A stretch of DNA of 27,138 nucleotides from a virus (lineage: Duplodnaviria; Caudoviricetes). The stretch covers positions 1 through 27,138 of IMG/VR virus record IMGVR_UViG_3300017785_001210; one strand, 5' to 3'. Position numbers and translations under genes: made by a program. Every line of letters starts with the position of its first letter. Position 1 is the stretch's first letter. Below the pieces are notes generated by a model. It did no database searches and had not been told where the DNA came from. It was given only the letters and a program-made list of their open reading frames with translations. This document shows, piece after piece, positions 23 to 18,789 of this stretch.

Positions 23-409
23 ATGAAAGAAGCATTGAAACTTGCGCTTGAGGCGTTGATGGACAATGAGCATTATGTTGCAGAGAACGAACGCCACGCC
101 TATGTTGTTCTGTACAACGAAGTCATTGATAAATGCAAAGCAGCCTTGGCACAGCCAGTACAAGAGCCTGTGGGTGTCTTTTGCGAGGATGATGATATTG
201 GTTATGTTCGCCTAATTCCTCACCAGCAAATGAAGTTGAAGGCATGGGACAAGCTCTACACCGCCAAACTACAATGCCCTTGGGAGGGGCTGACGTTTGC
301 CGAAATATGCGATGCCGAAGTGGTTGCAACGGATGGCTTTAATAATTTCTCAGAACTGAAATTCGCCCGAGCCATAGAAGCCAAACTCAAGGAGAAGAAC
401 AGTGATTGA
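23..409 (+). CDS. Phage early hypothetical protein (QPVQEPV / PWxGLT / AIEAKLKEKN modular type)
   Basis: 128-aa ORF with GGAGGT RBS at 11-16; overlaps the next start codon; motifs recalled as common in small phage early proteins. Confidence 0.8.
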   Translation: MKEALKLALEALMDNEHYVAENERHAYVVLYNEVIDKCKAALAQPVQEPVGVFCEDDDIGYVRLIPHQQMKLKAWDKLYTAKLQCPWEGLTFAEICDAEVVATDGFNNFSELKFARAIEAKLKEKNSD

Positions 410-668: not shown

Positions 669-772
669 CTTGGCCTTTCCCACCAGCCACCGGAGCCGTT
701 CCTTGGACTAAGCAACAAGAGAAGGCATATCAACAACAGAAGCAAGAGCAGCTACCCGCTGCACCGTTTTAA
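665..772 (+). CDS. Small 35-aa phage protein MTWPFPPATGAVPWTKQQEKAYQQQKQEQLPAAPF (not in the ORF track)
   Basis: Translated by hand; ATGA overlap with the upstream stop, AAAGGA upstream, fills the gap exactly, and its stop TAA forms part of the next RBS TAAGGAG. Confidence 0.75.
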   Translation: MTWPFPPATGAVPWTKQQEKAYQQQKQEQLPAAPF

Positions 773-781
773 GGAGACCAC

Positions 782-994
782 ATGAAACTAGCAGCAGGTA
801 ACCCAAACCTCATGAACAAAAAAAGCTACATCCGAGTAGAGCCATTACTTATGGAGCGTACGGAACACACTGCCACCCCTCGAACTTTTAACCACATGAA
901 AGACGGGCAGGTGTATGTACCTGAGAAGAGCGAACCTGTACGAGCAGGGGCAACGGATGCTTTGAAGTTACCGAGCCGGGGTTACCCAACGTGA
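782..994 (+). CDS. Phage hypothetical protein
   Basis: TAAGGAG RBS at 770-776; GTGA overlap with the next gene. Confidence 0.75.
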   Translation: MKLAAGNPNLMNKKSYIRVEPLLMERTEHTATPRTFNHMKDGQVYVPEKSEPVRAGATDALKLPSRGYPT

Positions 995-1955: not shown

Positions 1956-2061
1956 ACGCGCCGCATACGCTAAGAAAATTCAAGGAACAACCAATGACAC
2001 AAGAACTGAACTGCTCCGACGCTGCGAAGATGTTGATCGAGAGAATGGCAACACACCCTGA
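1855..2061 (+). CDS. Possible overlapping 68-aa protein (MTSEPDDPITDFLNAHIEPMRQ...)
   Basis: GGAGG at 1844-1848, 6 nt before ATG 1855; overlaps both neighbours. Confidence 0.45.
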   Translation: MTSEPDDPITDFLNAHIEPMRQREAQRVKNVLRKRAAYAKKIQGTTNDTRTELLRRCEDVDRENGNTP

Positions 2062-6238: not shown

Positions 6239-6251
6239 GGTAAGATTTCCC

Positions 6252-6317
6252 CGCCGAGCAATCGGTGTTCATTGTTTCTCCTTGATTTGCCGGGTAGTTT
6301 AGCTACCCGGCTTTTTT
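6252..6317 (+). ncRNA. Putative small regulatory RNA: GNRA hairpin, anti-SD/anti-AUG linker, terminator
   Basis: CGCCGA-GCAA-TCGGTG hairpin, linker TTCATTGTTTCTCCTTGATTT, terminator hairpin; TAAGAT -10-like box at 6241-6246. Confidence 0.55.
6289..6317 (+). terminator. Intrinsic terminator
   Basis: GCCGGGTAG-TTTAG-CTACCCGGC perfect 9-bp stem followed by TTTTTT. Confidence 0.88.
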
Positions 6318-6337: not shown

Positions 6338-7891
6338 ATGCAAATAATTGACAACAAAGCACTGCTTTTTAATACGAGAAAGGCAGCACAGATCACCGCG
6401 CTAATCCCCAAAAGTAAGGTGATCGAGACCCAAGGGGATGTGGATAGAGTGCTGGTTAACTGGGGGTTTGACGAAGCGCAACTCCTACGCAACCTAGGTA
6501 TCAAAGACGTACCTAGCCCCATCTTGGGACGCTACGACTGGCCGGGTATGTTCACCCCATTCGACCACCAGCGCACCACTGCAGACTTCCTAACCGTATA
6601 CCCACGGTGCTTCGTATTTAACGAGGCCGGCACAGGCAAGACAAGTGCTGCAGCATGGGCAGCGGACTACCTCATGCGCTTGGGTAAAGTCAAACGGGTA
6701 CTAGTGGTGTGCCCTGTGTCCATCATGGAGACAGCGTGGCGGTCGGACTTGTTCAAGACGGTAATGCACCGCACGGTAGCCATCGCTCAAGGCACACGCA
6801 CCCAACGCCAAGCCATTATCGCCAAGGGCTACGAGTTCGTCATCATTAACTTCGACGGCGTGAAGGTTGTCAACAAAGAACTTTTAGAGGGCGGGTTTGA
6901 CCTCATCATTGTGGACGAAGCCAACGCAGTTAAGTCGGTGCAGACAGACAGGTGGAAAGCCCTTGCTTCGTTAATCAAACCATCGACTCGCTTGTGGATG
7001 ATGACGGGCACACCTGCTTCGCAGTCACCACTGGATGCCTACGGCTTAGCCAAGCTCGTCAGCCCTGACACCGTACCTAGGTTCTTCGGCGCGTGGCGCG
7101 ACAAAGTGATGCTCAAGATTTCTCAATACAAGTGGGCACCACGCAGGGAGTCGCAGCAGGTAGTACATCAAGTGCTGCAGCCAGCGATACGCTTCACCAA
7201 AGCCGAGTGCCTAGACCTGCCTGACCTGTTGTACTCCACTCGTGAGGTACCGCTTACTCCGCAGCAGATGAAGTACTACGAAGCACTACGCAAGCAGATG
7301 ATGACCATCGCAGCAGGAGCAGAGATCACCGCAGTTAACGCAGCCGCTATGCTCAACAAACTCCTGCAGGTATCCCAAGGTGCGGTGTATACGGATGATG
7401 GCGATGTAGTGGAGTTCGATGTAAGTAACCGTGTATCGGAACTCATGAACGTCATCGACGAGACGGACAACAAGGTGTTGATCTTCGTACCGTACCGACA
7501 CACGCTGAGCATGCTGCGAGAGGAGCTAATTAAGGCAGGGCATACAGTCGAGGCCATCCAAGGTGGCGTACCCCCATCACAACGTGCGGAGATCATCAAG
7601 CGCTTTCAGACTGAGGACAACCCTAGGATTCTGTTGCTAAGTCCACAGGCTACGGCACACGGGATTACCCTTACTCGAGCCGATCAAGTTGTATGGTGGG
7701 GTCCAGTATCCTCCACTGAAATCTACCTACAAGCTAACTCCCGTGCCCACCGCGCGGGGCAGGTAAATCACGTTACGGTTACGCACCTACAAGGTAGTCC
7801 CGTGGAGCGCCGCATGTACACAATGCTGCAGAGCAACATCGATTTACATTTAAGTTTGGTGGATTTATACAAACAAGTGCTTGACGAATAA
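6338..7891 (+). CDS. SNF2-family (SF2) helicase/ATPase
   Basis: NEAGTGKT, LVVCP, VDEAN, MTGTP, HGITLT.A and QANSRAHRAGQ helicase motifs. Confidence 0.93.
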   Translation: MQIIDNKALLFNTRKAAQITALIPKSKVIETQGDVDRVLVNWGFDEAQLLRNLGIKDVPSPILGRYDWPGMFTPFDHQRTTADFLTVYPRCFVFNEAGTGKTSAAAWAADYLMRLGKVKRVLVVCPVSIMETAWRSDLFKTVMHRTVAIAQGTRTQRQAIIAKGYEFVIINFDGVKVVNKELLEGGFDLIIVDEANAVKSVQTDRWKALASLIKPSTRLWMMTGTPASQSPLDAYGLAKLVSPDTVPRFFGAWRDKVMLKISQYKWAPRRESQQVVHQVLQPAIRFTKAECLDLPDLLYSTREVPLTPQQMKYYEALRKQMMTIAAGAEITAVNAAAMLNKLLQVSQGAVYTDDGDVVEFDVSNRVSELMNVIDETDNKVLIFVPYRHTLSMLREELIKAGHTVEAIQGGVPPSQRAEIIKRFQTEDNPRILLLSPQATAHGITLTRADQVVWWGPVSSTEIYLQANSRAHRAGQVNHVTVTHLQGSPVERRMYTMLQSNIDLHLSLVDLYKQVLDE

Positions 7892-7908
7892 ATTTGACAG
7901 TGTATAAT
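7881..7908 (+). promoter_or_regulatory. Sigma70-type promoter
   Basis: TTGACG (7881-7886), 16-nt spacer, TATAAT (7903-7908) upstream of ATG 7945. Confidence 0.75.
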
Positions 7909-7944: not shown

Positions 7945-8334
7945 ATGGACGCAGACAAACTCGTGGCAGTGTATATCAAGATACGCGATGCCAAAGAAAT
8001 CAAAACAAAGCAGATGGAAGAAGAAATAAAAGTGTTGGAAGACCAACTCGATGCAGTAGCCCAAGAGCTACTCAACATCTGCAAGACTACAGGCCAAGAT
8101 GGCGGCAAGACCGCACACGGCTCATTCACACGGTCTGTAAAGACCCGATACTGGACTTCCGATTGGGACAGTATGTACAAGTTCATCCGTGAGCATGATG
8201 CACCCGAACTTCTTGAACGTCGAATTGCGCAGGGTAATTTCTCGCAGTTCCTCAAAGAGAAGCCGGACGTCATGCCCGCTGGTGTCAATGTCGAGTCGAA
8301 ATACTCGATTCTCGTTCGTCGTTCTTCTAAATAA
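7945..8334 (+). CDS. Conserved phage replication-module protein (coiled-coil N-terminus)
   Basis: AAGGA RBS; KT.HG....S.KT.Y...DWD....FI......LLE.RI pattern recalled from replication modules. Confidence 0.8.
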   Translation: MDADKLVAVYIKIRDAKEIKTKQMEEEIKVLEDQLDAVAQELLNICKTTGQDGGKTAHGSFTRSVKTRYWTSDWDSMYKFIREHDAPELLERRIAQGNFSQFLKEKPDVMPAGVNVESKYSILVRRSSK

Positions 8335-9508: not shown

Positions 9509-9520
9509 TCCCGCCCGGTG

Positions 9521-9553
9521 GGACGGTAGGGAGACCTACCGTCCTTTTCTTTT
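9521..9553 (+). terminator. Intrinsic terminator
   Basis: GGACGGTAGG-GAGA-CCTACCGTCC perfect 10-bp stem with GNRA loop, then TTTTCTTTT. Confidence 0.9.
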
Positions 9554-9572: not shown

Positions 9573-12407
9573 ATGACTGATTTTTTATCATCCGTACTGC
9601 CGACAACAGGCACGTACTGCACGGTGGGTATTCGGGGCGGCGTCGTTCGGCAGAATTTTCATTCCACCCTTGATGACCTTGAGGCTGCCAGTTCAGCCTA
9701 TCCAACCAAAGGGGTTGATGCTTATTATGCTCTTGCGTCCTTCCATGATGCCTCAAGCCGTAAGGCGGAAAACGCAGCGTTTCTGCGTTCATTTTTCTTA
9801 GATTTAGACTGCGGCACTGGTAAGCCCTACTCAGACCAAGCCGCCGCTGCGCAAGCCCTTAAAGCCTTCGTACAGGTCACCAAGCTGCCCGTCCCATACA
9901 TCGTTAACTCCGGTGGTGGACTGCATGTGTACTGGCCAATGACTGAGGATATCCCCGCTGATGTGTGGGCGATACATGCCAAATCTTTGAAGCGTTTGTG
10001 CGTACTGCACAACCTTCACGCTGACCCTGCGGTGACTGCGGATACTGTACGCATCTTGCGGGTACCCGGCACTACCAATTTTAAGAACGGCGTGTCTCGT
10101 CCGGTGTCAATAATGGTAGCTGGAGTACCTACTTCGCTAGAAGGGTTTATCGCCTTACTACCGGAAGCGCCCGTGGACTTGTCCGCTGCTAAGATGTTTG
10201 GGGCAGATGCAGCGATGTTGGAGCTTACTGGGGATTACCCTAAGTGTGAGTTCCGGCGTATCGTTATCCGCAGTATGAACGGCAACGGCTGCGCACAGAT
10301 TAAGCATGCGCTTGAGAACGCCGCTACCCTAGAAGAGCCGCTGTGGCGTGGGGCTTTGTCGATTGCAACTCGTTGCGAAGATGGCGCTAAGGCCATCCAT
10401 AAGTTGTCGGAGAAACACCCCGGCTACGATGCGGTGGCTACTGAGGCTAAGGCTGCGGACACCAAAGGCCCGTATACCTGCGAGTGGTACCGTGACAATA
10501 ACGGCGAGGTCTGCAAGGGCTGCACTCAGAAGGTATCTTCCCCGCTCATCCTAGGGCGCATCGTCCTAGAGGCAGAGGTCGTCAACGACCAGTACATCAT
10601 TGAGAAGCCCGAGGATGACGAATCCCCCGCCGTCTTACTTAGCGTCCCTGCCTACCCTTACCCCTACTTCCGTGGCATTCATGGCGGCGTGTTCAGGAAA
10701 GAGGAGAAGGCCGATGGTGAGGTGGTAGAGGTTGAAATCTACAAAGACGACCTGTATCTGACAGAACGATTCTTCGACGGTGACGAGCAAAACGGCGGGG
10801 ATGGAGAAATGGTAGGTATCAACCTACACATGAAGCGAGACGGTGTGCGGAGGTTCTATGCCCCTGTCACAACTATTTTTACTAAGGATAAGCTACGGGA
10901 CGTACTCGTGAAGAACGGGGTCGTTGCCTACGGCAAACATGTGGATGTACTCATGGCATATTTTGCATCAACTCTTCGCAAGCTGCAGACGCAGTTCACT
11001 GCGAATAAGACCCGGAGCCAAATGGGGTGGACTTCGGATAACACTGGCTTTGTAGTTGGTGAATTGGAATACACGACAGCCGGTCCGAAGATTGCGCCCC
11101 CCGCCAGCGGCACACGACAGCTAGCGTCCCACTTTAAACCCACGGGCACCCTGTCCGCATGGAAGGAGATTGCAAACTTCTACGATCGTCCCGGCCTTGA
11201 ACCCCACGCGTTGACCCTGTTCACAGGCTTTGGCTCCCCACTGCTGAAGTTTATCGGTGGTAGTACGGTCAAGGGCGCGTTGATTCATCTGAAGCACAAC
11301 GGTTCAGGCTCCGGTAAGTCCACGGCACAGATGATGGCTAACTCTATTTTCGGGCACCCTGATGACTTGCTGATGAAACAGGACGATACCTTTGCTTCCA
11401 AGATGCACATGCTCGGGATGATGAACAGCATCGTATTCACGATTGATGAGATTACCAATGAGAAAGCGGAGAACCTGTCCCATCTGTCGTACAGCGTCAC
11501 GAACGGTAGGGGCAAGCACCGCATGGAATCCCAGACCAATCAACTGCGAGCCAACCTTACCTCATGGTGCAACTTTACGATTACCTCGGGCAATGCGTCA
11601 ATCGTTGACAAACTACTTTCCATTAAGAGTACGGCCGATGGCGAGCTACGCAGGACGCTGGAGATTTCCGTGCCCCAGTACAAGGGCGCAACCAAGGATG
11701 AGATTGATCGAGTCTTCGGTAACCTCACAGACAACTACGGTGTGGCCGGCCCAATATATATTGAGTACATCCTGAAGAACCTCGACGAGGTAATTGCCCT
11801 GTTGAAGCAGTTCCAAGCCAAGATTGACAAGGACTTAAACCTCGATGCGTCAGACAGGTTCTACTCATGCTACGGTGCATGTGTGATGGCAGGTGGATAC
11901 ATAGCGCAGAAGTTGGGCTTGCACGATATCAACCTACGCAACATCTATGCGTACCTGCTGGAGGTAGTCGAAGCTAACCGCTCAGCCACTAAAAGCACTG
12001 TGGGCGATGCAGACCTTGTGGTGCAAGAAACGCTGGCTGGATACATCAACGACAACATCCGCAACGCACTGGTGGCTAACAGCGTCAGCAAGAGCGGGGC
12101 TCCCGAGGCTCCGATCAGAGAGCCAAGCGGTACGCTGAAGCTACGGTACTACCCTGACCTGCAAGAGCTTGCGATCCCTGCGGGAGAGTTCCGTGGTTAC
12201 TTTGCTGGTAAGCAGGTGGACGTTAAGGATGCGCTGCAACGACTGCAGAAGGCCAACTTCCTCAAGCATGACGGCAAGTCTCACCCTACCCGTATCGGTG
12301 CAGGGGCGCTAGGTGGCATGAGCGGCGTCTTGGTTCGGTGCTACATCTTGGACGCTAAGGCGCTTGGGATTGACCTGACCCCGCTGACAAGTGAAGACGC
12401 TCCTTGA
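9573..12407 (+). CDS. Primase-helicase fusion (AEP/RepB-like primase, Cys-containing middle domain, DUF927-type P-loop helicase)
   Basis: FFLDLD, VNSGGGLHVYW, RILRVPGTTN primase motifs; EPLWRGALS and PYTC...C..C; GSGSGKST, IDEIT, TSGN ATPase motifs. Confidence 0.9.
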   Translation: MTDFLSSVLPTTGTYCTVGIRGGVVRQNFHSTLDDLEAASSAYPTKGVDAYYALASFHDASSRKAENAAFLRSFFLDLDCGTGKPYSDQAAAAQALKAFVQVTKLPVPYIVNSGGGLHVYWPMTEDIPADVWAIHAKSLKRLCVLHNLHADPAVTADTVRILRVPGTTNFKNGVSRPVSIMVAGVPTSLEGFIALLPEAPVDLSAAKMFGADAAMLELTGDYPKCEFRRIVIRSMNGNGCAQIKHALENAATLEEPLWRGALSIATRCEDGAKAIHKLSEKHPGYDAVATEAKAADTKGPYTCEWYRDNNGEVCKGCTQKVSSPLILGRIVLEAEVVNDQYIIEKPEDDESPAVLLSVPAYPYPYFRGIHGGVFRKEEKADGEVVEVEIYKDDLYLTERFFDGDEQNGGDGEMVGINLHMKRDGVRRFYAPVTTIFTKDKLRDVLVKNGVVAYGKHVDVLMAYFASTLRKLQTQFTANKTRSQMGWTSDNTGFVVGELEYTTAGPKIAPPASGTRQLASHFKPTGTLSAWKEIANFYDRPGLEPHALTLFTGFGSPLLKFIGGSTVKGALIHLKHNGSGSGKSTAQMMANSIFGHPDDLLMKQDDTFASKMHMLGMMNSIVFTIDEITNEKAENLSHLSYSVTNGRGKHRMESQTNQLRANLTSWCNFTITSGNASIVDKLLSIKSTADGELRRTLEISVPQYKGATKDEIDRVFGNLTDNYGVAGPIYIEYILKNLDEVIALLKQFQAKIDKDLNLDASDRFYSCYGACVMAGGYIAQKLGLHDINLRNIYAYLLEVVEANRSATKSTVGDADLVVQETLAGYINDNIRNALVANSVSKSGAPEAPIREPSGTLKLRYYPDLQELAIPAGEFRGYFAGKQVDVKDALQRLQKANFLKHDGKSHPTRIGAGALGGMSGVLVRCYILDAKALGIDLTPLTSEDAP

Positions 12408-12621
12408 TATACCGCAGGTATTCACCCTTGTAGGGGTCGAGTACTTCCTTGACTGGGGGCAGGTTGCCCCCGGTAACTCTTTCTTTATACCAACCGTAGC
12501 CACGATCAGGCAGGTCAAATCAGTCCTTAACGAGACTTGCAAAGACCTGCCCTATACCTTCATAATCCGTACCCGCTGCGAGTACGGACGCTACGGCGTC
12601 CGCGTGTGGCGATTACTGTAG
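12391..12621 (+). CDS. Small phage protein (SFFIP...GRYGVRVWR), possibly DNA-binding
   Basis: Overlaps the primase end; last gene of the + arm; motif recalled from phage proteins. Confidence 0.7.
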   Translation: MKTLLDIPQVFTLVGVEYFLDWGQVAPGNSFFIPTVATIRQVKSVLNETCKDLPYTFIIRTRCEYGRYGVRVWRLL

Positions 12622-15600
12622 CGCGTCTGTCCTAAACTTCTTAATCGCTGGGGCTAAGTTGTTCATCATGCGCTGCTCTGACAACTTTAAAGGCCGCAAC
12701 TGAGCTTCCTTCTGGTCTTTGGTAAGGTCAGTACGAGCGCTAATTACCGCCATACCTTTACGAAGAGCCCCAAGCTGCTGTTCCATCTTGTTTACAAAAG
12801 GCCCGTATTTAATTAGGTCTATGTTCTCTTTGAGGTACTCACCGTACTCCTTGCCCCGGCCAGTGTTTTTTAGCTTGTTGGCAGTATCTACCGCCATATT
12901 TACCTTGGATGCTAAGTCGTAGAAATCCGTCTTGACTTGACTGTCAAACTCTTTGACCCCCACACGCCCCATGCCGGGTAAAGATGCAATGGTGTCCTGC
13001 ATGCTTTGGGTTGGGGTATTGTTAACCATTGAATTGGTCATCAGTATGGCCGCAGCCCCGTACATACCCATAGTGCCTTGTATGAACGCGTCGATCTTGG
13101 CGGGAGATATACCCTTACCGTCCATCCCCATTGCGTCCACTAAATCCTTAGCTCCCTGACCAATACCTTTAGCCAACGAGCTTGTACCTGCAGAGTACTG
13201 CATATAGGGCTCGAGCTTCTCCAACCCTGTGCCTACGATAGGCCGGCCTGTAAAGAAGTTGTAGTTTGTAGCCAACTCTACAGCTAGCTTAATCGGCTGC
13301 GCTACGGGAACTGGACCGCTAAACACCGCGTTTACTACGGCGTCAGACAAGCCAGCCCGAAGTTTGGCAGGGTCGTCCGCATACTTGCCCGAGAACTGCC
13401 GGACAATCGCCTCTGCTATATATTTAGGCAACAAGAACACATCGGGGCGCAGTGGAATTCCCCACCCTTGCATCCCGGGAAGCGTCAGCTTGCTAGCTTG
13501 TTCCTGCCTACTCATCTTCTCGTACTCGTCGTCGCCTACATTCATCATGGCGTTGATTACGGACATACCGAAAATCCAAGCCATGTTAGTTATCAGCGTG
13601 TTACGAGCTTCTGCACGGGCGGTAGGCGCAATGCCTTCGCTCTTTAGTACCTTTAACGCTACGCGTGACGCGGCATAGAACGCATTTAAGAACACTACGT
13701 TACGTGCCGCCGCAGCCAACTGGTTGTTTCCAACGCGGGTACGGAAGTTAATAATCTCAAACGCCCGCTCTACAGCATCTGCCTCAGATAGGCCGGAATC
13801 TTTAGCCGCCAAGTAGACTGCCTGTCGCACCGCATTGTCTGCAGTCAAGTTTAATTGCTGCATGATCGCAGGGTACTTTTCGAGTGCGCCCAGTTTGCGG
13901 AGCCCTGCTTGCACGTCAGCGTTTGATTTTGACAGCGAGGCGTCGTAGTCATGCACACCCACCACACCGAATGTGCGTAGTTCTTTATGTGCTGCGCTTG
14001 TACCCCGCATAGTTTTAACCACCTCTGCTACGGCTGTGAGTGGAATCTGAAACGCATACCGAGGCTTCAATCCGGACAAGTACGTCGCGGCCATTGAATC
14101 CATAGCCAACTGAAGCACGGGGAACAGCGGGAAGTTAACAATGGCTCCACGAAATACCCTGTTTACGCTGTCTACAAATCCGCCAATAAACGGCAACGCT
14201 GACGTAGCCATTACAGGTGCGCCCTTAAATACTTGGGCTTTGGCTGCGCTGTCAAACTCTACGTACTTGGGAGACCCCTTCTCAAGGTATGACACGGTTC
14301 GGTCGGCTGCGCGAGGGTCAGGGGTAACTACGGCTTTGGCTTGGTCAGGAATGTACTTGACTGCGGCCTGTGCTAGTTCTGTAGCCTTCTGGTTCTTGAT
14401 ACCTCGGGCCACGCTATACGCAGCCCAGTTCTCAAAGTTGTCCATCACGTCATGCACTTCCAGCATGGAACCTTTGAACTGGTGTTCTTTGGCTTTGGCC
14501 TGTAGCCCACGGATATACGCGTTGAATCCGTCTTTATCCGTATCGGCATCTGCAGAATCCCGTTGGAATGGAATCCACTCGGCGTTGTCCAACATCCACT
14601 GCCCAGTCTCCTCAGACCAAATATTTGTCTCCTGCAGAAAGGTACGCAACCACTTGCGCATGCCCTGCTTGATGTCCTCAATCTTCTTAATCTCTGGCAA
14701 GGTATTGAACAGCTTCATGCCTTCTTTAACTTGCTCAGGGCTCATGTGAAATACGTAGGACTCCGCCTTATTGCGCAATTCAGCCGCAATCTTCTTCTTA
14801 CCTTCTAGCTCTTTGGCATCGGCTTCAGCCATCATGCGATCCCGCATGCCATACAGTGCCAGCATACGTTTGGATTCCAGCGCGGTGCTCGTGAGATACC
14901 GTGCCTCGCCTAGGGTAAGCCCGTGGTTATCCATCATGCTACGGTATTCATTCCCCAACGATTTCAAGTTGTCTTTGGACTCAGAGGTCTTAAACTTGGA
15001 TGAGTTAGGGTCGTACTTAATCCCACCGTCCAACAGGGCGGTAGTAGCTAGCCCACTGTCGTGGAACGCTTGCGATGTACTCAGTGCCGCCAATAGCCGA
15101 TTAGCCTCAATGTCGGGCATGGACGCACGAACTTCCGCACGGATAGCCCGCTGCAGCGGGGCTGCAACATCTAAGGCATCCTCCGCTATATTTAGCACAC
15201 GGGTGATCGCGCCTTCTTTAGGCGTATTGGCAGTAACCGACCCCATAACCGTATCGGTTATGCGCTGCAACATTGGACGGGTATCTTCTTTGGGTGCGGT
15301 ACGCCCCATACGTTGCAGAATGTCCTTGGCGTCATCCCCACGGGAGAACCGGATATCAGGGTTTGTTGGGTCGTAGGTGCCCCGATTACCCGTAGCGGAT
15401 TTAACTTGCGTTGGTTTGTACACAACCACTTCCACCAGATCACCATCGCGGAACTGCATAAGCCCGTCATAGCCCTGAGCCAGCGCCCGGGTCATTACCT
15501 GCTTACCAATGTAGCCTTTTTCTTCGTAAGCCTTCTCAACCATTGCGGATGCTTTATCTGGGGTCATCCCAAGTTGCACCAAGGCATCGATCATTGGATC

Positions 15601-18600
15601 GCCTTTAGCACGAAGCATCAAGGGATTCTTTATGGAAGCATATACCTGCATTACGTTCTGGCCGCTTGCCTCATCCATCTCGGCGTCGCTACGGGATAGG
15701 TTGGAAGTATCCGCGTATGTACCAGCAAAATCAGGCTTGGGCGTTAGGTATATTCCTGCGCCAAGTGCGCCATCGGGGGAAAGCTTGAAAGTGTCAAAAC
15801 TTCTGCCGGTGCCGTGGTAAAGAGGTAATGGATTACCGTCCGCATCCACAACCTTGCTATCGCCAAACCACCGCTTGAACGCTTCCGTAGTAGGTGCTGT
15901 AATCTTTCCGCGTAAGTTAAACCGGGTGCCCCCGTCAGCAGCTACTGCACTGCCTCCCGACTCCACAAACGCCCGTGCTGGCAGGATGAACTTAGCGATG
16001 ATGTCGTTGTTCGTCATCTGCAGACTAGGCATGATCTTGCGAATGAACGCACGGATGGCCGCTACTGCCCGTTGAACAATACCCAGTGTCGGTTTGGTTT
16101 GCGCCAAATTAGCCAGCACTTCTTCTGCGGCTTCCGATGCTTGCTTGGGGTCGGACAAGTCCAACCCGTACTTAGCCGCCACGGCTTCCATCTCAGCTTT
16201 ATAGGTAGTCTCAATGGCTTTTAGTTCGGTATCAAGCGCAGTGCCAAATACTCCACGTAATCCAAAGTGCCCAAGGGCTTCGTGCGCAAACGTAGTTACT
16301 ACATCCGCTTCGCTGCTTACTTGGCTGGATACGATATACACCTTGCCATCATGGTAGAAACCTGCGGGAGAGCCCTTGGCTCCTCCGGCTAACTGCTCGT
16401 TGTTGTGGTCACGTACTGCTTGCGGCACTGCAGCATCGTTCATATCCCGCACAACTATCACTTCTGGCGCGTTCTTTAGTTTGGCTACGATTCCGGCAAC
16501 AATAGCCTTGACCTTCTCATGCGACATGGGCTTCGCGGGGGTTTCAGTACGCTGGAACCGGGGTTTGTTAGCTTGTTCAACTAGGAACTCAACCGCCATC
16601 TCCGCGCTAGCGGCAGGAGCTTCTTTGCTTGCAATAGCCTCTAAGTGCCGGCGGGCATCGTTCTTGACTTTCTCAGTAAATTGCGGACTCTTTACGACCT
16701 CGTTTAGCGCCCCGACAATCTGAGCGGTAGGGGGTTGGGTACGCTGCTGGTCCCGTTGCCCACGATCCGGCACAACCGTACGCTGCTCAGGGGCAGGTTT
16801 ACCCAACGCACTGGCTTGGGCTTGTTCAGCGAGTCGTGCTGCAATGTCGGCGGCTTCTTGGCGACGGGCAATCTCAGCGGTATCTACTTCAACCCGGCGC
16901 TTCAGTGTAGGGGGCTTAATTCCCGGCTGTTGAGTTCTTGTAACAACAGGTTGCTCAGGAGAAACCAATCGCTGTCCGACAGGTCCTGCAGGTTGTCCGG
17001 TGGGGGCTCCGGCTCCGGGCGCTGCTGTGTCGTCGGCGGTAGGTGGAACAGATACATCCACGCTTGGCTCACGTCCTCCGGCTCGAGGGGGCGACTGAAT
17101 TGTAGGCTGCGTACTGGGCGCATTTTGAGGCTCCTTGGGCGTTACATTGGCAACGATCTCTTTGACTACCTTCTGTATTCCTTTGTTCTCTGGCACTACC
17201 AATTGCTTGGCAGCGATCTCCATTTGAACTTGGTCAGGGGTTTTCCCTAGGAGGTTATCAGCCAACCATTGCCGGTTGGTCTTGGACATAGACGCCCCAA
17301 AGGCAGTTACTTCCGCCTCAGTTATAGGGGTGGGCATAGTCATATCTAGCCGCTGTTGACCCGCAGCTTCTAATTCTGCTTGGGTAGGCGCAATACCTGC
17401 GTCGCGTAATACGTCTGTTGTAGGGGGCAATTCCGCAGCAATTACGTCGCGCAAACCTTCTGTAGCATCGTTAGTAGGAGGTGCGGGAAGTAAGGGATTA
17501 CCACTAGCATCTACTTCAGGGGGCAACTTGCCGTCAGGCTCAGCTACACGCAATCCAATTTGTTCTTGATTGGTAGTATCTTTTTTGAACTGATCTTCTG
17601 CGGCTATATCTTTTTTAAGCGTAGCCTCACTTACCCGATTTTGAACATCCGCTGCATTGAGATCATCCATTTTTGCGGAAATTTCCGCAATAGCCGCCTT
17701 GACTATAGGGGTCTGAGGTTCTTGCCGTAGGCGTTCGCGGGCTTGCCACATGTCGCCGTAGGTAGCCTCTCCCAAAGGTGTAGTCGTAGTCTCCGTAGTA
17801 GGTTGGGTATCCACAGTTGGGGATTCACCTGAAACAGGTTTAGGCTGCGCACCCCTGCCTTGCACTGCGCTGATCGAACCCGCAGCTAAAGCACCCAGAG
17901 CCGCATCTCCTGCAGCCCGTCCGGCAACCCCTTGGAATGTATCTACATCGAACCCAGCGCGTTGTAATGCCCGGTTCTGTGCAATTTTTTCTTGGCCTCC
18001 TTGGGCACCTTCCATTGGGGCTTCGCCCAGCGCGGCGCGACCTATAGATTTCTTGGCCCCGCCTTGGACCAACTGGTTTTCCACTCCGAAACGAGCGCCT
18101 GCGGCACCTAAAATTGTGCCTCCAGCGATATCCAAAGCATTTTCTTTGTTGTATTCTTGAGCTATAGCGGCTTGCTCTCTAGCCTTGGCCTCCGGCATTG
18201 TGCCTTTTAGGCGTTCGTACACCGCGTCGTATATGGAGCCTTTGACGGAGCCCGCGCCTTGCGCAGCACCTACGATTGTGTTAATTACCCGCACCGTAGC
18301 GGGTAGAAGTTTGGCTGCTCCGCCGACAAGACCAGTAACTAAGTAGGGTACAACAGACCCAAGGGCTTGGGCAGTAGACTCGATTGGGGCTTCTACAACA
18401 GCACCCAACTCAGCGCCGACTTCATTTAAGAACCCAGTACCCTCCGCAGCTTTAATCTTGGCCTGACGTGCGGCCTGTTCGGCTTGGCGTTCAGGAGTTT
18501 TCATTTCCCCCAACGCAGACTGCCCACGTCCTAGGGCTGCTGATACGGCATTGTCTGCACCAAATACATCAGCCAACGACTTGCCGGCTCCAATGACACC

Positions 18601-18789
18601 CTGACCCAACCCTAACGCAGTATTTGCAAGGGAGAACCCAGCAGATTTAGTAGGTGCTGCAGGGGCGGCAGGGGGCGGAGCCCCCGCATTTATAGATTGG
18701 ATATATTGGGCTAGGGCTGTAGCTCCGGCAGTGTCCCCCGCTGCATCCGCATTACGAAGTGCTTGATAAAGGGACTCTAGATCAGCCAT
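12613..18789 (-). CDS. Large polyvalent internal virion/ejection protein: zincin-like metallopeptidase (MPTase), ART-PolyVal-like ADP-ribosyltransferase, LPD38-like C-terminus
   Basis: HEALGHFGLR...AAEEVLA; FKRWFGDSKVVD..G.PL..YHGT...GIYLT...GYDG...EVVVY; N.NFFTGRPIV...ISPAKID.FI.G..G..G. Confidence 0.88.
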   Translation of the reverse strand: MADLESLYQALRNADAAGDTAGATALAQYIQSINAGAPPPAAPAAPTKSAGFSLANTALGLGQGVIGAGKSLADVFGADNAVSAALGRGQSALGEMKTPERQAEQAARQAKIKAAEGTGFLNEVGAELGAVVEAPIESTAQALGSVVPYLVTGLVGGAAKLLPATVRVINTIVGAAQGAGSVKGSIYDAVYERLKGTMPEAKAREQAAIAQEYNKENALDIAGGTILGAAGARFGVENQLVQGGAKKSIGRAALGEAPMEGAQGGQEKIAQNRALQRAGFDVDTFQGVAGRAAGDAALGALAAGSISAVQGRGAQPKPVSGESPTVDTQPTTETTTTPLGEATYGDMWQARERLRQEPQTPIVKAAIAEISAKMDDLNAADVQNRVSEATLKKDIAAEDQFKKDTTNQEQIGLRVAEPDGKLPPEVDASGNPLLPAPPTNDATEGLRDVIAAELPPTTDVLRDAGIAPTQAELEAAGQQRLDMTMPTPITEAEVTAFGASMSKTNRQWLADNLLGKTPDQVQMEIAAKQLVVPENKGIQKVVKEIVANVTPKEPQNAPSTQPTIQSPPRAGGREPSVDVSVPPTADDTAAPGAGAPTGQPAGPVGQRLVSPEQPVVTRTQQPGIKPPTLKRRVEVDTAEIARRQEAADIAARLAEQAQASALGKPAPEQRTVVPDRGQRDQQRTQPPTAQIVGALNEVVKSPQFTEKVKNDARRHLEAIASKEAPAASAEMAVEFLVEQANKPRFQRTETPAKPMSHEKVKAIVAGIVAKLKNAPEVIVVRDMNDAAVPQAVRDHNNEQLAGGAKGSPAGFYHDGKVYIVSSQVSSEADVVTTFAHEALGHFGLRGVFGTALDTELKAIETTYKAEMEAVAAKYGLDLSDPKQASEAAEEVLANLAQTKPTLGIVQRAVAAIRAFIRKIMPSLQMTNNDIIAKFILPARAFVESGGSAVAADGGTRFNLRGKITAPTTEAFKRWFGDSKVVDADGNPLPLYHGTGRSFDTFKLSPDGALGAGIYLTPKPDFAGTYADTSNLSRSDAEMDEASGQNVMQVYASIKNPLMLRAKGDPMIDALVQLGMTPDKASAMVEKAYEEKGYIGKQVMTRALAQGYDGLMQFRDGDLVEVVVYKPTQVKSATGNRGTYDPTNPDIRFSRGDDAKDILQRMGRTAPKEDTRPMLQRITDTVMGSVTANTPKEGAITRVLNIAEDALDVAAPLQRAIRAEVRASMPDIEANRLLAALSTSQAFHDSGLATTALLDGGIKYDPNSSKFKTSESKDNLKSLGNEYRSMMDNHGLTLGEARYLTSTALESKRMLALYGMRDRMMAEADAKELEGKKKIAAELRNKAESYVFHMSPEQVKEGMKLFNTLPEIKKIEDIKQGMRKWLRTFLQETNIWSEETGQWMLDNAEWIPFQRDSADADTDKDGFNAYIRGLQAKAKEHQFKGSMLEVHDVMDNFENWAAYSVARGIKNQKATELAQAAVKYIPDQAKAVVTPDPRAADRTVSYLEKGSPKYVEFDSAAKAQVFKGAPVMATSALPFIGGFVDSVNRVFRGAIVNFPLFPVLQLAMDSMAATYLSGLKPRYAFQIPLTAVAEVVKTMRGTSAAHKELRTFGVVGVHDYDASLSKSNADVQAGLRKLGALEKYPAIMQQLNLTADNAVRQAVYLAAKDSGLSEADAVERAFEIINFRTRVGNNQLAAAARNVVFLNAFYAASRVALKVLKSEGIAPTARAEARNTLITNMAWIFGMSVINAMMNVGDDEYEKMSRQEQASKLTLPGMQGWGIPLRPDVFLLPKYIAEAIVRQFSGKYADDPAKLRAGLSDAVVNAVFSGPVPVAQPIKLAVELATNYNFFTGRPIVGTGLEKLEPYMQYSAGTSSLAKGIGQGAKDLVDAMGMDGKGISPAKIDAFIQGTMGMYGAAAILMTNSMVNNTPTQSMQDTIASLPGMGRVGVKEFDSQVKTDFYDLASKVNMAVDTANKLKNTGRGKEYGEYLKENIDLIKYGPFVNKMEQQLGALRKGMAVISARTDLTKDQKEAQLRPLKLSEQRMMNNLAPAIKKFRTDALQ

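Follow-up and report, generated by a model that had tools for sequence, protein, structure and literature searches.

A candidate anti-Shine-Dalgarno small RNA encoded at the HNH-helicase gap of uncultured freshwater phages

Genomic setting of the locus

The DNA analysed here, referred to as the window, is the whole record IMGVR_UViG_3300017785_001210, with a length of 27,138 bases. It carries the end of an early arm, followed by a replication block on the plus strand and by late genes on the minus strand. The replication block encodes DNA polymerase A, a PD-(D/E)XK nuclease, an HNH protein, an SNF2 helicase and a DUF927 protein, and the element described in this work separates the HNH gene from that of the helicase (Table 1). 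The element-bearing clade is formed by uncultured freshwater phages; near-complete relatives reach about 60-66 kb, and the closest cultured phages share 37-40% helicase identity. Among 19 contigs from mixed MAG bins, the element was found in one only, which bears an Aquiluna label and is probably misbinned (L176). Elsewhere in the window, a near-consensus sigma-70 promoter (TTGACG-16-TATAAT) is located at the end of the helicase gene (7881-7908), upstream of the remaining replication genes. The HTH/primase terminator at 9520-9545 has CGGTAG..CTACCG in common with the element terminator and GGAGAC in its loop, and the minus strand encodes, at 12613-18789, a 2058-aa protein with ART-PolyVal and LPD38 domains.

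Table 1. Features of the HNH-helicase gap and predicted target sites in the window.
Feature	Position	Strand	Basis
HNH-family gene, small, 94 aa	5954..6238	+	Pfam HNH E 0.0007; PHROGs HNH families
-10 box TAAGAT, sigma-70-type	6241..6246	+	sequence; TAnnnT at fixed offset in 41/42
Predicted transcription start G	6253	+	purine 7 nt past -10 box in 63/66 distinct elements
5' hairpin, 6-bp stem, one G-U, GCAA loop	6252-6267	+	folding
Unpaired linker, 21 nt, complement of Shine-Dalgarno-spacer-AUG region	6268-6288	+	folding, duplexes
UCUCC core, predicted seed, complement of GGAGA	6277..6281	+	conservation; unpaired probability 0.91
Intrinsic terminator, 10-bp stem 6289-6311 and six T 6312-6317	6289..6317	+	
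SNF2 helicase gene	6338..7891	+	Pfam SNF2-rel_dom and Helicase_C
Best predicted target: GGAGA start region, early 88-aa ORF at 402	382..405	+	accessibility rank 1
Second predicted target: start region, 153-aa ORF at 1994	1980..2000	+	accessibility rank 2
Further GGAGA start, 70-aa ORF at 782	771..787	+	outside the ten best accessible sites

Architecture of the element

A preliminary description, made from the letters of the window, had divided the gap into a TAAGAT box, a hairpin with a GCAA loop, a 21-nt linker and a terminator, and every one of these parts was recovered at the coordinates of Table 1. Counted from the predicted start, the HNH stop codon falls at -17 to -15 of the promoter. 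Of 42 distinct elements, 41 have this stop 2 nt upstream of the -10 box, and in L021 the stop itself opens the box. It had also been remarked that no good -35 box is visible. Indeed, none is present in the window and a match of 4/6 or better exists in 3 of 66 elements; the relative L280 displays a perfect one (TTGACA-17-TAGGCT). As a guess, the missing -35 may point to an activator-dependent promoter with a delayed onset.

The usual sigma-70 start pattern consists of a purine at +1, preceded by a pyrimidine, 7 nt past the -10 box. The +1 was placed at G6253 because the purine and pyrimidine positions of the element fit this pattern: a pyrimidine stands just before the predicted +1 in 54 of 66 distinct elements, and after collapse to distinct 12-mers the purine is kept in 54/57 and the pyrimidine in 45/57, with a background purine frequency of 0.47. 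The +1 purine and the preceding pyrimidine lay outside the parser; the -10 bases were parser-required or hand-placed over the 66 elements, so their invariance there is not independent evidence. From this start the predicted RNA measures 65 nt (6253-6317) and its 5' stem would form five pairs, not six.

The fold of the element has a z of -4.55, and none of 200 shuffles was equally stable. The 5' hairpin varies freely in sequence and length among relatives (34 different first-6-nt arms among 62 elements), and the nine pairs of the terminator form in 42/42 elements. The check for stem covariation suggested in the preliminary description came out in favour of the layout, with changes in both arms at six of nine terminator pairs (100% of cells paired) and at five of six pairs of the 5' hairpin, where an alignment built on sequence alone has 70.7% of cells paired. 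The longest U run is shorter than seven in 63 of 64 tails, including that of the window with its six T, which suggests a leaky termination that would also feed the helicase mRNA. The helicase leader of the window is U-rich and has no Shine-Dalgarno sequence, the gene begins 20 nt past the terminator, and the helicase is likely expressed through terminator read-through.

This arrangement brings up the possibility that the element is a cis-acting leader, in which promoter and leaky terminator, perhaps through attenuation, keep helicase mRNA at a low level and the short RNA is a by-product. Such a function would fit the position of the helicase and the short U tails, as well as the survival of promoter and terminator in core-less lineages and the presence of GGAGA before the helicase in some deep members. 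However, there is no antiterminator, giving up the terminator costs 11.6-21.6 kcal/mol in 42/42 elements, and only 13 of the 42 show more upstream capture of the terminator 5' arm than shuffled sequences do. Moreover, the core is kept in the window's subclade although it has no cis partner there, and the helicase match of L095 starts as far as 588 nt downstream. A purely cis-acting role is thus improbable. Attenuation is not supported, none of the 42 elements having an alternative fold closer than 11.6 kcal/mol. A masking of the seed in the read-through RNA was rejected: the core opens less readily there than in the short RNA, but the masking exceeds the shuffled-upstream control in only 18 of 52 cases.

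Regarding contigs assembled from RNA runs, those of run X1 span the window uniformly, and this run may contain DNA. An RNA end at 6280-6281, where contigs of runs X2 and X3 start, was considered and rejected: one contig of X8, a run whose type is not recorded, starts at 6282, and the X2 and X3 starts were therefore taken as an assembly break.

Conservation of the element among relatives

Relatives were selected by their helicase or HNH protein, independently of the element. The terminator layout appears in 52/52 loci with at least 63% helicase identity and an intact N-terminus. Those loci, together with two without helicase, provided a first set of 42 distinct elements. L092, whose contig stops within the terminator, and L020, in which the helicase N-terminus is missing, were left out. 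TCTCC is present in 36 of the 42, versus 2.9 expected from shuffles, TTCTCC in 31 and the 16S-like CCTCC in eight. A second set of 80 loci was selected with the helicase of a deeper member. Automatic parsing of 50 of them yielded 22 new elements, 21 with the -10 box and 17 with TCTCC (1.7 expected), and the 30 loci missed by the parser were judged by eye, with the layout present in 21 and absent in nine. The element is found in this manner in 71 of the 80 second-set loci, 21 of these by eye. Overall, TCTCC is kept in 52 of 66 distinct elements as the flanking hairpins change, and its losses, in the other 14, are spread across the tree. The core is also accessible, with a median opening energy of 0.8 kcal/mol over 61 rows, one of them a duplicate and another with TCTCC past the terminator. 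The conservation of the linker proposed as a check in the preliminary description was confirmed for the UCUCC core, but its anti-AUG part (CAU at 6270-6272 in the window) is restricted to 27 of 36 core-bearing elements, with CAT located 2-14 nt upstream of the core, and the flanks differ widely among relatives.

Just five strongly kept bases are insufficient to fix a target, a circumstance that would also suit a short RNA acting on a protein or on another RNA, for instance by titrating an RNA-binding protein in the manner of a decoy, or by sponging up a GGAGA-bearing host RNA. The terminator stem top, GTAG/CTAC, is nearly invariant in most members, and there are precedents of phage RNAs competing for Hfq or acting as sponges of host sRNAs (VpdS, AgvB; PMC12197685). 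Nevertheless, unrelated phages commonly employ that stem as a terminator (42 contexts), for which reason a special role of GTAG/CTAC was discarded, and the stems of deep members are different ones. TCTCC lies upstream of the identical stem in 2 of these 42 contexts versus 43 of 55 in the element. The frequent CAU just 5' of the core points to start codons, and a decoy or sponge is quite improbable. Even less credit can be given to the proposal that the linker is read on the minus strand as the RBS and start codon of a small peptide, which would have 14 aa in the window. A start codon does follow GGAGA by 3-12 nt on that strand in 29 of 36 core-bearing elements, but the remaining seven have none, the frames range from 9 to 153 codons with no peptide in common, and promoter, start-site signature and U tail all belong to the plus strand. 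In addition, the changes CAT->CGT and TCTCC->TCTCT seen in relatives keep G-U pairing and spoil the minus-strand start, although they are few and are common transitions. A minus-strand peptide is therefore not supported and is very improbable.

A search model built on 39 elements recovered a single copy per genome, including five held-out elements. It missed the divergent G029 element, so that a blank in other genomes is no proof of absence. The model gave no match in four element-less genomes, in five distant genomes or in 41.5 kb from each of two cultured phages; nor did the four element-less genomes yield a copy at another place, in a search whose model overlooks the G029 element. In a helicase tree obtained by a quick method, the element occurs in all three subclades and the element-less group is nested within them. 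Nine loci (L253, L254, L258, L260, L268, L270, L284, L289 and L305) have only a short gap before the helicase and belong to a nested subclade; six of them were placed in the tree, where they form one group. From these comparisons it is clear that the element is a conserved feature and not a chance arrangement, and they give good support to the prediction of a conserved small-RNA gene whose anti-GGAGA core is exposed.

Other structures were observed in more distant relatives. In L022, L027, L028, L030, L031, L033, L034, L036, L039, L046, L054 and L066 the HNH-helicase gap is occupied by a different, larger structured element, composed of TAAGGTAYGAGT, a hairpin, AACCRTAYCAG and more stems, often with CTCCTT in a loop, whose first stem looks compensatory. 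An Rfam scan of eleven loci, seven of them with this larger element, gave no match at the gap; L035 contains at 11349-11417 an Rfam int-alpA match with 40 bits, above the gathering score of 35.8. Intergenic TCTCC stretches are also found away from the gap, at the end of the replication arm in G011 and G012, on the minus strand in G012 and G013, and after the primase in G001 and G006. None of the stretches in these five genomes is matched by the element model. A terminator comes after those of G011-G013, and TACAAT stands ahead of the first one in G012. The occurrence of such UCUCC-plus-terminator elements in the distant G011, G012 and G013 suggests that the design recurs in the family.

Predicted targets in the window and relatives

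The pairing of the linker with 387-405 anticipated in the preliminary description was reproduced as a duplex of -22.1 kcal/mol at the start of the 88-aa ORF, which has relatives in 12 loci. Among the additional sites then proposed, the starts at 782 (-15.3 kcal/mol) and 1994 (-14.9 kcal/mol) held, but that at 7945 is weak (-12.5 kcal/mol) and its gene carries AAGGAA, not GGAGA. Further starts of the window give duplexes of -14.5 and -14.4 kcal/mol. Compared with 1000 shuffles in which TCTCC was fixed, as the use of shuffled controls had been advised, the best site has p = 0.004 and the top-three mean was reached in 0/1000. Sites were also ranked by accessibility in four genomes, using perfect 6-nt seed sites only and the best 70 per genome. 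Within the ten best accessible sites, early starts account for two in the window (ranks 1 and 2), four in G001 and three in G004, with about 0.1-0.2 expected by length, and in G003 none of the ten lies at a start.

When cognate linkers were confronted with their own genomes by permutation, p was 0.30 with 10 genomes, 0.12 and 0.04 with 15, and 0.08 in both tests when each subclade contributed a single genome. A co-evolution of linker and targets within each genome is, by these tests, not robust. The pairing of early starts was better than that of the remaining starts (p < 0.05) in only 6 genomes out of 10 and 6 out of 15, varying with the linker segment used. The best window site is a gene-junction motif that is found in element-less phages too. 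This junction, AAGGAGAAGAACAC-ATG (387-405 in the window; also in L481, L483, L484 and L485), occurs in up to four copies between small early genes and doubles as the end of one early gene and the start site of the next. The near-identical contig L486 has an extra early arm of 5.7 kb with four GGAGA starts, none of which beats that at 402. A perfect 18-nt target of the linker was sought in relatives and rejected, as the 24 viral contigs with a match correspond to the element itself (five) or to gene starts of unrelated phages (19).

GGAGA use by gene class

Genes were identified with a caller of our own that makes no use of Shine-Dalgarno scores. Across the 14 genomes with the core, 65 of 316 early genes have GGAGA ahead of them versus 23 of 488 replication and late genes, counts that are pooled, share ancestry and hence are non-independent; the motif is thus present at only about one fifth of early genes. 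In the same genomes the ratio of GGAG+A to GGAG+C/T is 67:32 in early and 19:66 in late genes. The early bias was observed in 25/25 genomes, including four without the element (31/123 vs 7/122) and five distant ones, and therefore does not depend on the element RNA. Repeated motifs were noted in several early arms, where (CTTAT)AACTTT(T)GGAGAA precedes several early genes of G001, G003, G006, G007 and G011, and AACTTTTAAGGTTAAAAG is repeated in G002 and G004. As a stand-in for the host, 16 bacterial genomes were employed from the order of a Rhodocyclaceae-labelled MAG, which may not be the order of the host. Their summed excess over a reversed-pattern control is 2220 AGGAGA starts versus 1366 AGGAGY, with about 43 excess AGGAGA starts per Mb. 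With this bacterial ratio, late genes are those that depart from the pattern. Accordingly, early genes look host-like, late genes avoid the partner of the seed, and host mRNAs may be targets as well.

Taken to its extreme, this leads to the idea that the sRNA was selected for one or few host GGAGA mRNAs, for instance of a receptor or a defence gene, and that the matches in early phage genes, whose starts resemble those of the host, are incidental. Several observations agree with it, namely the bacterial pattern of early genes, the abundance of AGGAGA starts in the stand-in bacteria, the early bias independent of the element, the fragile co-evolution with the phage's own starts, and the fact that 19 of the 24 viral contigs with the 18-nt linker complement, none of the 19 a close relative, have it as an ordinary gene start. 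On the other hand, the widely varying flanks of the linker suit many short pairings better than one fixed target, and late genes depart from the bacterial pattern precisely in the direction that avoids the seed. Selection for such dedicated host targets is consequently rather unlikely, although host targets as such are about as plausible as phage ones.

A proposed model for class-wide silencing

The reading that we favour, with arguments about evenly balanced for and against it, is that the gap locus gives rise to a 65-nt sRNA that pairs in trans with GGAGA ribosome binding sites, lowering early phage and host translation and sparing late genes. In the predicted RNA (6253-6317), the 5' hairpin and the terminator would flank an open UCUCC seed. 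By pairing over GGAGA and the start codon, this seed and the U-rich sequence around it, in which CAU is frequent, would block ribosome entry on early phage and host mRNAs, and late genes, mostly without GGAGA, would escape. The sRNA of the preliminary description is borne out in its conserved gene and anti-GGAGA core. The silencing of early genes that it proposed would fit the early GGAGA bias and the top accessible sites, but it is weakened by the existence of the bias without the element, by the cognate test, which is not robust, and by the incomplete retention of the anti-AUG part. A more ambitious version, which is possible but tentative, holds that the base after GGAG works as an address code: a single sRNA would read GGAGA and shut off early phage and host translation class-wide, with late GGAGY and AAGGA starts escaping. 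If true, a 65-nt RNA that sorts mRNAs by one Shine-Dalgarno base would provide infection timing and a turn-down of host translation without any protein. The clade itself supplies natural controls, as in some members the core is intact, in others it has a wobble form or is missing, and still others have no element at all.

Relation to known systems

Phage small RNAs with a known role are few and mostly come from temperate phages, according to PMC12197685 and PMC4933390. Rfam contains no family for the element and gave nothing at gathering level in the window. Its best weak match, below threshold, is SuhB/MmgR of Alphaproteobacteria (RF00519), with 22.5 bits vs a gathering score of 41 and E 0.015. 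Like SuhB/MmgR, the element would be a short RNA with a pyrimidine-rich anti-Shine-Dalgarno stretch 5' of a terminator; unlike it, the core is UCUCC instead of the UUCCUCCCU of the RF00519 consensus, the gene is phage-borne and the 5' hairpin falls outside the match. As reported in 10.64898/2025.12.09.693200, SuhB binds the Shine-Dalgarno region of thnR with Hfq and represses thnR. In E. coli, Hfq-binding sRNAs possess tails of seven or more U (PMC5558911), a length that the element tails do not reach in 63 of 64 cases.

The c4 antisense RNA of P1 and P7 acts in trans near the RBS on a phage mRNA (PMC12197685). The element RNA would be directed at starts as a class, whereas c4 is dedicated to ant and functions in immunity; the Rfam family of c4 has no match in the window at gathering level or at E up to 10. 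The element resembles PreS of lambda, VpdS of VP882 and sRNA1/2 of PAK_P3 in being an intergenic small RNA encoded by a phage. The lambda RNA acts on host dnaN, that of VP882 competes for Hfq and the targets of the PAK_P3 RNAs are unproven, and none of them is described as anti-GGAGA in the accessible portions of their sources; those of PAK_P3 are abundant late in a virulent infection and have been proposed as translation silencers (PMC4933390). In the literature surveyed, mostly at the level of titles and abstracts, no description of the element or of an anti-GGAGA phage RNA was found; PMC12197685 tabulates 38 uncharacterised phage sRNAs, among which it could figure. The element can be presented as a new candidate for a phage anti-Shine-Dalgarno sRNA, with a silencing function predicted from its sequence.

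A functional parallel to the address-code proposal is found in T4, where the RegB endoribonuclease, together with ribosomal protein S1, silences early mRNAs class-wide through their Shine-Dalgarno sequences; its strong sites are GGAGRAYARAA and late transcripts are resistant (PMC3014915). RegB is, however, a protein that cuts, whereas the reader encoded by the element would be an RNA that pairs, and there is no homology between them. The element belongs to neither SuhB/MmgR, T4 RegB nor c4, and, should the base after GGAG indeed act as an address, it would represent an RNA-only counterpart of T4 RegB.
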